Source of the DNA: an uncultured Pseudomonadota bacterium
GTDB taxonomy: Bacteria; Pseudomonadota; Alphaproteobacteria; Rs-D84
Direction of reading: 5' to 3'
Length of the DNA stretch: 64,000 nucleotides
Assembly (NCBI GenBank): GCA_947307295.1
Contig: CAMZIQ010000001.1
Span: 104,968 to 168,967 of the forward strand
In this document: positions 26,431 to 54,830 of the stretch, piece by piece
Position numbering within the stretch: the first letter of the stretch is position 1
How the letters are laid out: every line of letters starts with the position of its first letter
Made by a program: the position numbers and the translations under genes
Notes under the pieces: generated by a model
The model's database searches: none
Seen by the model: the letters and a program-made list of their open reading frames with translations, nothing else
What the model was told of the DNA's origin: nothing

Positions 26431-26613
26431 CTTTTATTTTCCTTTTTTTCTTGTCCCACGAAGCCTTGGCGAAGTGGGATGATTTTATTTATTCGGATGT
26501 TTCCATCCACCCTGCATCCAAAATCCACACGTTTTTTGAATGCGTATCGATTTTTGCCGAAAAACATTTTATTATGCAAGACAACAAAAATCAAATTTTT
26601 ATTTTGTTTTCGC

Positions 26614-28448: not shown

Positions 28449-28535
28449 TTCTTTTTTCCTTTTGTCCTATGACTATATTCATATATAGTCTGTTTCGCAT
28501 ATAATACAAGATTATACACTCGGTTTATTTAAATT

Positions 28536-29111: not shown

Positions 29112-29468
29112 TTAAATTTTCATTCCGTTTGCGCGCATAGAATCGCCCAAAGCCTTTACACGACCATGATACAGATAACGACCACGATCAAAATAATAAT
29201 TATCTTTAATACCTGCTTTGGCCATACGTTCAGCAAAAATTTTACCTAACATTTCAGCCCCAGAGATATTCCAACCTTTGCCTTTGAAACTCTTTTCTTT
29301 TGAAGATGCGGCACACAATGTGCATCCCTTTACATCATCAATAGCCTGAATTTCAATATGACGGCTCGAGCGAAACACTGACAAACGAATTTTGCCAGGA
29401 TTCTTTCTTTTCAACGCACCGCGATTTGCCAACGTACGTCTTTCTTCAGAAGATAAATGTTTTAACAT
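29112..29468 (-). CDS. rplR: 50S ribosomal protein L18
   Basis: 118 aa, RLSVFRSSRHIEIQAIDD. Confidence 0.9.
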   Translation of the reverse strand: MLKHLSSEERRTLANRGALKRKNPGKIRLSVFRSSRHIEIQAIDDVKGCTLCAASSKEKSFKGKGWNISGAEMLGKIFAERMAKAGIKDNYYFDRGRYLYHGRVKALGDSMRANGMKI

Positions 29469-29490
29469 TTTATTTTTCCTTTTTTTATCA

Positions 29491-29510
29491 ATTTCCGTAA
29501 CAGCGGAAAT
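29491..29510. promoter_or_regulatory. Conserved 20-bp palindromic hairpin (atttccg-taacag-cggaaat), copy 1, in the rplF-rplR spacer
   Basis: Near-identical hairpin gattccg-taacag-cggaatc recurs at 31686-31705. Confidence 0.3.
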
Positions 29511-29515
29511 TATTT

Positions 29516-29746
29516 TTATTTTTCACGAGATTCTACATATCCGTATTTATTCCCACTCAAATAATCACCTATATATTGCCACAAAGATTCACTTTTGCCA
29601 ACTTTTCTTTCAACTGCAGGTTTTACTTGATGTTTTCGACCATCAAAATAATCCCCACAATAATCTAATATAGCACGCACAATCCCAAACAATTTTGGAA
29701 AGCGCTTTGAATTAGATGCAATATTAAGATTTTGTTGAGTGTCCAT
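29516..29746 (-). CDS. Small hypothetical ORF (77 aa) occupying the 294-bp gap between rplF and rplR
   Basis: MDTQQNLNIASNSKRFPKLFGIVRAILDYCGDYFDGRKHQVKPAVERK.... It is the in-gap portion of track ORF 29516-29923, and the upstream portion overlaps rplF. Most bacteria have only a few bp here. Confidence 0.3.
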   Translation of the reverse strand: MDTQQNLNIASNSKRFPKLFGIVRAILDYCGDYFDGRKHQVKPAVERKVGKSESLWQYIGDYLSGNKYGYVESREK

Positions 29747-29762
29747 ATTATAAACCCAGATA

Positions 29763-30314
29763 TTATTTCTTTTTGCCTTCTTTGCGACGGATGTATTCGT
29801 CTTTATAGAAGATACCTTTACCTTTATATGGGTCAGCTTTGCGGATTTTATGAATCTTATCAGCAAATTGTCCCAACAAATTCTTATCGATACCAGAAAT
29901 TGTAAATTCTGTTGGTGTTTCACCCATTGTCACAGTCAAACCAGCTGGAATTTCCATGGTTATATCATGAGAAAAACCAACAACCAACGTAAAGATATTG
30001 CCCTTTACAGATGCTTTATAACCAACACCCTTCATATACATAGGTTTTGAAAAACCTTCGGATACGCCCTGGACAGCAGCTTTAATATTACGAGTCATTG
30101 TTCCCCACATAGCGCGAGAAGCTTTATCTTCTGCATCTTTTGGTGTGACAACTACATGACCATTTTCAACTTTGATATCAACCAAATGGGCATTTTTAGT
30201 ATCCAAGGATACACGCAATTCGCCTTTTGGACCTTTAACAACTACGGCGTTATCTGTCATTTCAACCGATACGCCATTTTTAATTTCTACTGGATATTTT
30301 CCTGCACGAGACAT
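29763..30314 (-). CDS. rplF: 50S ribosomal protein L6
   Basis: MSRAGKYPVEIKNGVSVEM... Confidence 0.9.
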   Translation of the reverse strand: MSRAGKYPVEIKNGVSVEMTDNAVVVKGPKGELRVSLDTKNAHLVDIKVENGHVVVTPKDAEDKASRAMWGTMTRNIKAAVQGVSEGFSKPMYMKGVGYKASVKGNIFTLVVGFSHDITMEIPAGLTVTMGETPTEFTISGIDKNLLGQFADKIHKIRKADPYKGKGIFYKDEYIRRKEGKKK

Positions 30315-30728: not shown

Positions 30729-30799
30729 ATTTTACTCCTTAGTTTGCAAGAATTTCTTCCTGCTCTTGGGCTGCATTGTCCACAGCTTGCTTGTTAATT

Positions 30800-31685: not shown

Positions 31686-31705
31686 GATTCCGTAACAGCG
31701 GAATC
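31686..31705. promoter_or_regulatory. Conserved palindromic hairpin (gattccg-taacag-cggaatc), copy 2, in the rplX-rplE spacer
   Basis: Same core ttccgtaacagcggaa as at 29491-29510. Confidence 0.3.
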
Positions 31706-54202: not shown

Positions 54203-54502
54203 GTGGGCCCCTTTCACTCCGCTTCGCTCCGTCCAGAACCCAAACATTGTTTCACAATGTACGATTTCAAACCAATACACCACAACAAAATAAAAAATAC
54301 ACCTTTCGGTGTCTTTTTTATTTTGGTCGGAGTGGCGGGGCTGTAATTCCCACTCATTTCATTCGTGGGCCCCTTTCACTCCGCTTCGCTCCGTCCCGAA
54401 CCCAAACATTGTTTCACAATGTACGGTTTCAAACCAATACACCACAACAAAATAAAAAATACACCTTTCGGTGTCTTTTTTATTTTGGTCGGAGTGGCGG
54501 GG
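54203..54502. repeat. Tandem direct repeat, two copies of about 138 bp with a 162-bp period. Each copy ends in the 3'-terminal 17 nt of tRNA-Pro(GGG); copy 2 is fused to the intact tRNA
   Basis: Copy 1 is 54203-54340 and copy 2 is 54365-54502, nearly identical with two mismatches seen. Both contain the palindrome cattgtttcacaatg and the terminator hairpin acacctttcggtgt. Confidence 0.85.
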
Positions 54503-54562
54503 TTCGAACCCGCGACCTTTTGCCCCCCAGACAAACGCGCTACCAGGCTGCGCTACACCCCG
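54486..54562 (-). tRNA. tRNA-Pro (anticodon GGG), CCA encoded
   Basis: Manual fold of the reverse complement: acceptor CGGGGTG/CACTCCG, D-arm GCGC-AGCCTGGTA-GCGC, anticodon arm TTTGT-CTGGGGG-GCAAA, T-arm GCGGG-TTCGAAC-CCCGC, discriminator A, CCA. C1:G72 is typical of tRNA-Pro. Confidence 0.8.

Positions 54563-54753: not shown

Positions 54754-54830
<77 letters not shown>

Follow-up and report, generated by a model that had tools for sequence, protein, structure and literature searches.

Time and again, small genes within ribosomal-protein operons have proved to encode components of the ribosome that had been overlooked, as in the case of bL38, which acts on uL6. Lineage-specific small ribosomal proteins are also represented by bS22 and bL37 of the mycobacteria, which were found by cryo-electron microscopy and are universal within their clade. 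In the archaeal spc operon the genes for eL32 and eL19, which are larger proteins and universal in archaea, lie between the genes for uL6 and uL18. A different class of small product is formed by the regulatory arrest or leader peptides of the SecM, MifM and TnaC type. Of the operon-encoded small proteins, bL38 is a basic 5.6-kDa protein that binds and stabilises uL6 (PMC7797042, PMC11851116) and that was first suspected from the location of its gene in a ribosomal operon (10.1101/494179). At the level of the transcript, the spc operon of E. coli carries an S8 operator at rplE (PMC3616713, PMC7247131). Here we describe a small open reading frame (ORF), and a conserved mRNA hairpin next to it, in the spacer between rplF (uL6) and rplR (uL18) of an uncultured alphaproteobacterium; the material is a stretch of 64,000 nucleotides of contig CAMZIQ010000001.1, hereafter the window. 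A lineage-specific small protein in a ribosomal operon is a known kind of thing, and the family to which this one belongs is new.

The str, S10, spc and alpha ribosomal gene cluster of the window is encoded on the minus strand. A first-pass annotation, made from the letters of the window, had pointed to a 294-nt gap between rplF and rplR at 29469-29762, and the end of rplF at 29763 and the start of rplR at 29468 confirm it. The annotation had also placed in this gap an ORF of 77 aa on the operon strand; the sequence that it quoted is exact and runs on that (minus) strand from 29746 to 29516, but the product measures 76 aa plus a stop rather than 77. A palindromic hairpin reported to follow the ORF is real (AAUUUCCG-CUGUUA-CGGAAAUU, 29511..29490), whereas the premise that the L6 and L18 genes are normally a few base pairs apart does not apply in this clade, in which the ordinary spacer is 44-54 nt long with the hairpin already included. 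The reading implied by these remarks, that of a real small-protein gene on the operon strand, is supported by comparison with relatives. Loci that have the extra ~245 nt hold an ORF that is intact, in frame and under constraint, with a ratio of nonsynonymous to synonymous differences (pN/pS) below 1. Where the ORF is absent the entire insert is absent, and a conserved spacer with a lost or frameshifted ORF is not the pattern found; the exceptions are one locus (L060), and possibly a second (L078), that resemble decayed remnants. On this evidence the spacer ORF is probably a real protein-coding accessory gene whose product, and not just its translation, matters.

The relatives used for these comparisons are 80 of 242 genome loci positive for L6, with 73-97% L6 identity to the window, and counts out of 80 refer to this set. 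All 80 come from uncultured gut or rumen Alphaproteobacteria, many of them labelled Candidatus Enterousia, and we take the host itself to be a Candidatus Enterousia-like alphaproteobacterium of the order Rs-D84 with a genome of ~1 Mb or less. Candidatus Enterousia belongs to this order, in which genomes measure ~0.75-1.0 Mb and coding density is ~90% (PMC12306168).

The manner in which carriers of the insert differ from one another provides the evidence for coding. The reading frame is intact in all of the distinct carriers (at least 13), every length difference among them is a multiple of three, and the ORF frame alone stays open in every one of them, the remaining frames and the complementary strand being interrupted. 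A complete ORF of at least 76 aa appeared in 0.3% of 20,000 shuffles of the 294-nt spacer. Values of pN/pS fell between 0.31 and 0.67 in 11 of 12 pairs, with a one-sided Fisher p<0.01 in 5 pairs, as compared with 0.02-0.29 for the flanking L6 and L18 genes. The constraint on the small ORF is real, yet several-fold weaker than that on its neighbours. Synonymous divergence between the window and L001 is 0.27 in the ORF and 0.26 and 0.31 in the flanks, and between L061 and L069 it is 0.57 in the ORF and 0.60 and 0.59 in the flanks; this agreement indicates that the gene has largely diverged together with the operon. It may be asked whether the extra 245 nt act instead as RNA, in the form of a regulatory leader or small RNA in which the ORF is incidental, given an operon where regulation at the RNA level is common and a conserved, structured hairpin adjoining the insert. 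This is very improbable in view of the single open frame and the in-frame indels, of substitutions that favour synonymous sites, of amino-acid conservation that outlasts the divergence of the DNA, and of the lack of any Rfam match for the spacer or hairpin at gathering or E-value thresholds.

Homologues of the window protein are few in sequence collections. A single-sequence search returned six clusters with 64-83% identity and lengths of 71-78 aa, all unnamed and devoid of a Pfam domain, and profile searches returned no more than 26 clusters from 5.8e9 proteins and, from 1.84 billion (1.84e9) representative proteins, 35 clusters formed at 50% identity. Family members are 45-87 aa long with the sole exception of one 123-aa sequence, and the few that are deposited in GenBank are labelled 'hypothetical protein'. 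For the window protein, Pfam and NCBIfam gave no family at E<=10, the best PHROGs match had E 0.11, the best match among PDB sequences had E 0.055, and PADLOC gave none; 26 members scanned singly yielded just scattered matches to unrelated families (E>=0.011). A literature search found no paper on a gene between rplF and rplR, nor on the hairpin.

The genomic address of the family is fixed. Every member with readable neighbours sits between Ribosomal_L6 and Ribosomal_L18p genes, bar one chimeric-looking contig of 549 nt, and the close homologues that could be placed start 16 nt past rplF and end 41 nt ahead of rplR. The same order of rplF, ORF and rplR was read for P0029, P0038, P0040 and L095, the last being the single locus confirmed by a metagenome scan with a narrower family alignment. 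Five more carriers among the 80 loci (L061, L069, L080, L082 and L083) have spacers of 217-232 nt and ORFs of 49-54 aa, whose products match the window protein over its N-terminal half. These shorter, single-motif forms and the longer double-motif forms are homologous by profile-profile comparison (hhalign probability 95.4%, E 1.9e-8). The comparisons as a whole establish the small ORF as a conserved and, by its features, translatable gene at a fixed site, co-oriented and tightly packed with the spc genes, and as a member of a previously undescribed orphan family restricted to Candidatus Enterousia-like gut Alphaproteobacteria (order Rs-D84).

The contig that departs from this arrangement (L093, an ENA contig with a coverage of 0.8) carries the 123-aa ORF and has no rplF or rplR nearby. 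The C-terminal 46 residues of this ORF open with a uL18-like start (MLKH...) and continue into the family motif (EYTGDYFSGQKWK...), and a variant hairpin, ATTTTCG-CTAATA-CGAAAAT, follows. We read the contig as a chimera produced in assembly or, alternatively, as a copy that has moved from its place.

The basic unit of the family is a basic protein of ~50 aa with an isoelectric point of 9.3-9.9 that is rich in aromatic residues. It comprises a polar N-terminus, N-[LR]-x-I-A-S-N-S-K; an amphipathic helix of ~20 residues; the motif E-Y-x-G-D-Y-[LF]-S-G-x-K-[YHW], whose residues Y33, G36 and K38 do not vary at all and whose Y29 and D32 hardly vary; and a variable linker of ~10 residues, with a short and basic Lys/Gln tail that usually closes with KQK. 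This motif is conserved across members that share just 14-35% identity. The window protein is a tandem-duplicated form with two motifs, LDYCGDYFDGRKH (aa 27-39) and WQYIGDYLSGNKY (aa 56-68), and in this protein and its close relatives the second copy repeats the last part of the helix together with the motif. Double-motif forms arose independently several times (A2, the group of the window protein; P0029/P0045; P0049; and P0054), and such repeated duplication of the motif points to a function at the level of the protein. AlphaFold2 models contain helices only, at low confidence for the window protein (predicted local distance difference test, pLDDT, 56.6) and with a pLDDT of 68.0 for a single-motif member, whose central helix scores 74-87. 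Members of the family are devoid of a transmembrane segment, and with it of the hydrophobic helix expected of a type I toxin or small single-pass membrane protein: for the window protein the best 19-residue Kyte-Doolittle mean is 0.69, with 4 charged residues in the helix. Examples of the tryptic peptides that the family would yield are AILDYCGDYFDGR and SESLWQYIGDYLSGNK.

The hairpin downstream of the ORF has a distribution of its own. It precedes rplR in all 89 related loci, with or without the ORF, and its twin is found in all 74 loci that reach the rplX-rplE spacer; the pair is conserved in every related locus covering both spacers. By this distribution the hairpin is an older and independently conserved mRNA element and not a part of the insert. 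The minimum-free-energy fold forms 9 pairs at 29512..29489, and the invariant 12-nt core CCGCUGUUACGG at 29506..29495 recurs identically at 31701..31690 in the rplX-rplE spacer. For the outer stem, 92.1% of cells in the alignment are paired and 5 of 8 pairs show compensatory changes; cells with double changes number 108, a count attained by 0 of 500 shuffles (26±6), and pairing in slid controls is 22-59%. G-U pairs are frequent and confined to the sense strand, which indicates that the hairpin works as RNA on the operon transcript. The distance from the end of the core to the next ATG is 22-26 nt at both sites. The upstream stop, that of rplF or rplX, lies 9-20 nt before the core, and the family stop lies exactly 3 nt before it in all nine of the other intact members.

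Two known classes of palindrome were considered for this element and rejected. It is not an intrinsic terminator, because GAUAAAAAAAGG, and not a U-run, comes after the hairpin on the operon strand; a terminator-like score arises on the plus strand only. A dispersed repeat, of the repetitive extragenic palindromic (REP) or miniature inverted-repeat transposable element (MITE) kind, was rejected as the covariance model has two significant matches in 64 kb, both at fixed operon positions, and exactly two per related locus. The same model found no match in the 16S, 23S and 5S rRNAs of the E. coli rrnB operon, which are not those of the host. Neither the AGGA nor the AUG of rplR is paired with the hairpin in the minimum-free-energy fold, and the Shine-Dalgarno sequence is not sequestered at rplE either. 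As in ribosomal-protein leaders, a structure supported by covariation adjoins the start of a ribosomal-protein gene, and published candidate ribosomal leaders include none for rplE or rplR (PMC7247131). These two genes encode two 5S-rRNA-binding proteins, and we infer that the hairpin before them is a candidate protein-recognised operator or coupling element.

The position of the small ORF between rplF and this hairpin suggests how it may be expressed. It would lack a promoter of its own and be read from the spc mRNA, with translation initiated either at its own weak Shine-Dalgarno sequence or by re-initiation after rplF. A Shine-Dalgarno-like AAGG, AGGG or AGGT is found 7-12 nt 5' of the ATG in each related carrier, and the GGG of the window is the weakest of these. 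This weak G-run, together with a start 16 nt past the rplF stop, suggests that the small protein would be made roughly in step with the ribosomal proteins. With the family stop 3 nt before the core, a terminating ribosome would have to melt the hairpin, as the ribosome ending rplF presumably does in relatives that lack the insert, where the rplF stop is 10-19 nt from the core. The stop of the small ORF would in this way have taken over the role of the rplF stop, and the geometry of stop, hairpin and start that links upstream translation to rplR would have been kept. The window copy itself ends two codons early because a CAA has become TAA: the codon at 29518..29516 is TAA, and in the closest homologue, L008, the same place holds CAA (Gln), the 3' ends being GAAAAATAAAAATAATTTCCG in the window and AAAAAACAAAAATAATTTCCG in L008. 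The usual stop of the family persists in frame 6 nt (two codons) downstream, at 29512..29510, where it overlaps the base of the hairpin.

The same geometry would suit a cis-acting upstream ORF, for which translation matters and the peptide does not. Ribosomes reaching the stop, which lies in the base of the hairpin, would open the stem or dislodge anything bound to it and in this way control how fast rplR is initiated, and the conserved motif would be a signal for nascent-chain pausing. Such an arrangement would account for a stop held 3 nt from the invariant core in those nine members despite varying tail lengths, for a hairpin 22-26 nt before the rplR ATG, and for the conservation of the final KQK residues and of A-rich RNA 5' of the hairpin. 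We nevertheless consider it improbable, as most species do with the hairpin alone and the hairpin leaves the rplR Shine-Dalgarno sequence free. The glycine of the SGxK segment lies 8 to 21 residues from the C-terminus across members, unlike in known arrest peptides, the N-terminal region at 40-70 residues from the stop is conserved as well, and a pausing signal would hardly be expected to undergo tandem duplication repeatedly and independently, as the motif has.

When every spacer of the operon was compared across ~90 loci, two hot spots of insertion emerged, rplF-rplR (21 loci) and rplO-secY (11 loci). Three more insertions flank rpmD (L30), one between S5 and L30 and two between L30 and L15, and the rplX-rplE spacer, which holds the same hairpin, contains no insertions. 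The rplO-secY inserts, in spacers of 287-611 nt, were seen in L055, L060, L061, L065, L067, L068, L069, L071, L073, L078 and L081. They hold either a lipoprotein-like ORF of ~145 aa (MKKILGIVVLLVVCA...) or 1-2 copies of a protein of ~96-100 aa with ...IPAKYH..., and neither type is ribosomal-looking; the corresponding gap of the window is 56 nt long and has no insert. In the rplF-rplR slot, four loci (L067, L068, L073 and L088; spacer 227-240 nt) have a different ORF of 53-57 aa, with a transmembrane-like helix (Kyte-Doolittle 2.08), a Lys-rich tail and a stop 16-18 nt before the core. Comparison of this ORF with the main family by hhalign gave a probability of 32%, the tail alone being similar (YLSINKSKIKKNLQESKQK; E 0.005, in a tiny database). 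The rpsE-rplO gap of the window (28449-28535) has no rpmD; the same is true of all 33 close relatives (L6 >=83%), and distant relatives keep L30. A link between the small ORF and the loss of rpmD was rejected, as L30 is missing in the whole clade of the window with or without the ORF.

Several observations weigh against a protein-coding gene whose product matters, and some of them against a ribosomal role in particular. The ORF is absent in 68 of the 80 related species, which have the 44-54 nt spacer, and the closest relative, L010 (97% L6 identity), is without it. Carriers are scattered on a rough, unbootstrapped neighbour-joining tree of L6 and L18 DNA (~900 nt). L001 and L022 carry the gene and their nearest neighbour, L013, does not, and the flanks of L001 and L013 are 88-99% identical per 100-nt window, mostly at >=95%, with 97% and 99% beside the gap. 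The proteins uL6 and uL18 are nearly unchanged between carriers and non-carriers. As most close relatives do without it, the gene is dispensable. Constraint on the ORF is no more than moderate, with a pN/pS of 1.03 in one close pair, and the nonsense change has shortened the window protein by its two final residues. L060 keeps just a tail-like ...GQKFRQMAFWQRNNQNKK (a weak match, E 0.03-0.07) and L078 a broken ...RYFAG... (not significant); the former, and perhaps the latter, look like decaying copies. Confidence in the structure models is low (pLDDT 57 and 68). Finally, the same operon in relatives holds clearly non-ribosomal inserted genes, such as the lipoprotein-like ORF between rplO and secY, and an unrelated-looking membrane-type ORF occupies the rplF-rplR slot of 4 species.

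Exchange between lineages appears to have contributed to this pattern. The double-motif carriers that were read (the window, L001-L009, L022 and L095) share one common allele of the hairpin and downstream spacer, bar one base in L009, and L013 has the spacer allele of its ORF-less relatives, a sign that on one occasion or more an allele was replaced through homologous recombination. In L062 (CADCKW010000004.1), L6 is 79% and L18 95% identical to the window, and this looks like a recombination breakpoint in or beside the rplF-rplR spacer, between fairly distant lineages. Patchiness of this kind could be produced by a selectively neutral or decaying passenger, be it an insertion or an old gene that has ceased to function, that persists between essential genes and is slowly lost, through repeated deletion and allele replacement by homologous recombination. 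The many species without the ORF, its presence and absence between the near-identical flanks of L001 and L013, the nonsense change and the remnant-like spacers, the pair with a pN/pS of 1.03 and the recombination at the spacer of L062 are all in keeping with such an origin. We hold it to be improbable all the same, for the motif is conserved where overall identity is as low as 14-35%, several independent pairs have pN/pS values significantly lower than 1, and the frame is intact in every distinct carrier. Moreover, the host genomes are strongly reduced, and inert DNA is unlikely to persist in them for long (PMC12306168).

A protein-coding gene whose product matters is the reading that we retain, and the question is then what the product does. 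By analogy with bL38, the protein may act in trans and assist the ribosome, or the neighbouring uL6 or uL18/5S, as a small accessory partner, a suggestion that we put forward as possible but tentative. About equally likely, the peptide forms a helix, has a partner outside the ribosome and uses the operon merely for expression; since the operon hosts non-ribosomal inserts, position in it does not by itself imply a ribosomal role. The most complete proposal combines a clade-restricted ribosome-associated protein, as partner or chaperone of uL6 or of uL18/uL5/5S rRNA, with a hairpin that would be a new translational operator coupling rplE and rplR to upstream translation, and in this combined form it is rather unlikely.

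Table 1. Location of the small ORF, the hairpins and the adjoining features in the window, with the basis of each assignment.
Feature	Position	Strand	Basis
rplF (uL6), 183 aa, 5' of the insert	29763..30314	-	ORF list; L6 73-97% identical across 80 genome loci; Pfam Ribosomal_L6 on syntenic genes
Weak Shine-Dalgarno-like GGG, 8-10 nt 5' of the small-ORF ATG	29755..29757	-	inferred from the sequence and the spacers of relatives
Small ORF, 76 aa + TAA, double-motif ('A2') member of the new orphan family	29516..29746	-	homologues, pN/pS, in-frame indels, synteny, shuffle test
Ancestral family stop, in-frame TAA, 3 nt 5' of the hairpin core	29510..29512	-	3'-end comparison of relatives
Conserved mRNA hairpin before rplR	29489..29512	-	fold, 89 loci, covariation, covariance model 42 bits, E 2.7e-11
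rplR Shine-Dalgarno AGGA, 3' of the hairpin, not sequestered	29477..29480	-	sequence and fold; conserved AAAGGAAA in all spacers
rplR (uL18), 118 aa	29112..29468	-	ORF list; synteny with relatives
Second hairpin, GAUUCCG-CUGUUA-CGGAAUC, in the rplX-rplE spacer, 24 nt 5' of the rplE ATG	31686..31705	-	74/74 loci; covariance model 34.5 bits, E 1.1e-8

Other parts of the window showed features that are separate from the insert. The S14-S8 spacer (30729-30799 in the window) is consistently long, with a median of 76 nt and a range of 54-90 nt over 85 loci, and might hold another conserved element. The secY-rpsM gap (26431-26613, 183 nt) contains no adk, infA or rpmJ (L36) and no L36-like ORF; the alpha operon presumably has its promoter here. 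Two tRNA-Pro genes with the anticodons GGG and CGG lie ~190 nt apart on the minus strand, at 54486-54562 and 54754-54830, and are the sole Rfam and ARAGORN matches in the window.

The small ORF and the hairpins are of interest on several grounds. No relatives of the family have been described, its motif is sharply conserved, it occupies one fixed place in the genome, and its natural polymorphism of presence and absence between close genomes allows function to be probed by comparative meta-omics. The pair of hairpins before rplE and rplR represents an undescribed, strongly constrained mRNA element, and we know of nothing on the control of ribosomal-protein synthesis in the order Rs-D84. The comparison of spacers further shows that essential operons in these reduced genomes serve as landing places for accessory genes. 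If the protein were indeed associated with the ribosome, its gene would occupy the same slot, between those for uL6 and uL18, as the archaeal genes for eL32 and eL19.

Comparison with the known systems shows similarities of different kinds. The regulatory peptides of the SecM, MifM and TnaC type resemble this locus in having a small ORF just 5' of a gene, a hairpin between the two and a conserved peptide motif. They differ in that the hairpin here leaves the downstream Shine-Dalgarno sequence unmasked, the distance from motif to stop is not fixed, and most relatives lack the ORF but retain the hairpin. With the S8 operator of E. coli the hairpin shares the character of a conserved mRNA structure just 5' of the start of a spc-operon gene, and one of its two copies is likewise at rplE, whereas its form is a simple stem of 7-9 bp with an invariant hexaloop and not the internal-loop helix recognised by S8.

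Among proteins, the archaeal eL32 and eL19 offer a positional parallel only, in that they too are encoded by extra genes in the uL6-uL18 slot; there is no sequence relation, and Pfam gave no ribosomal family for the proteins described here. bS22 and bL37 are similarly very small, basic, overlooked by annotation and restricted to a clade, but have no homology to the present family, which occurs in a minority of species. The closest parallel in character is bL38 (DUF4295 / PF14128; rpmL; Bacteroidia), and the differences from it are considerable. Neither the window protein nor other members matched PF14128 at E<=10, and there was no PDB match; bL38 folds as a beta-hairpin and prolongs the sheet of uL6 in the 50S subunit, whereas the present family is predicted to be helical, from low-confidence models (pLDDT 56.6 and 68.0). 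The bL38 gene follows rpmB-rpmG and that described here follows rplF, and bL38 is conserved across a phylum and important for growth, whereas the present gene is patchy and dispensable. The two are nonetheless alike in being basic proteins of ~50 aa that belong to one lineage and are encoded inside a ribosomal-protein operon, and the protein that bL38 binds, uL6, is the product of the gene directly after which the small gene lies here.

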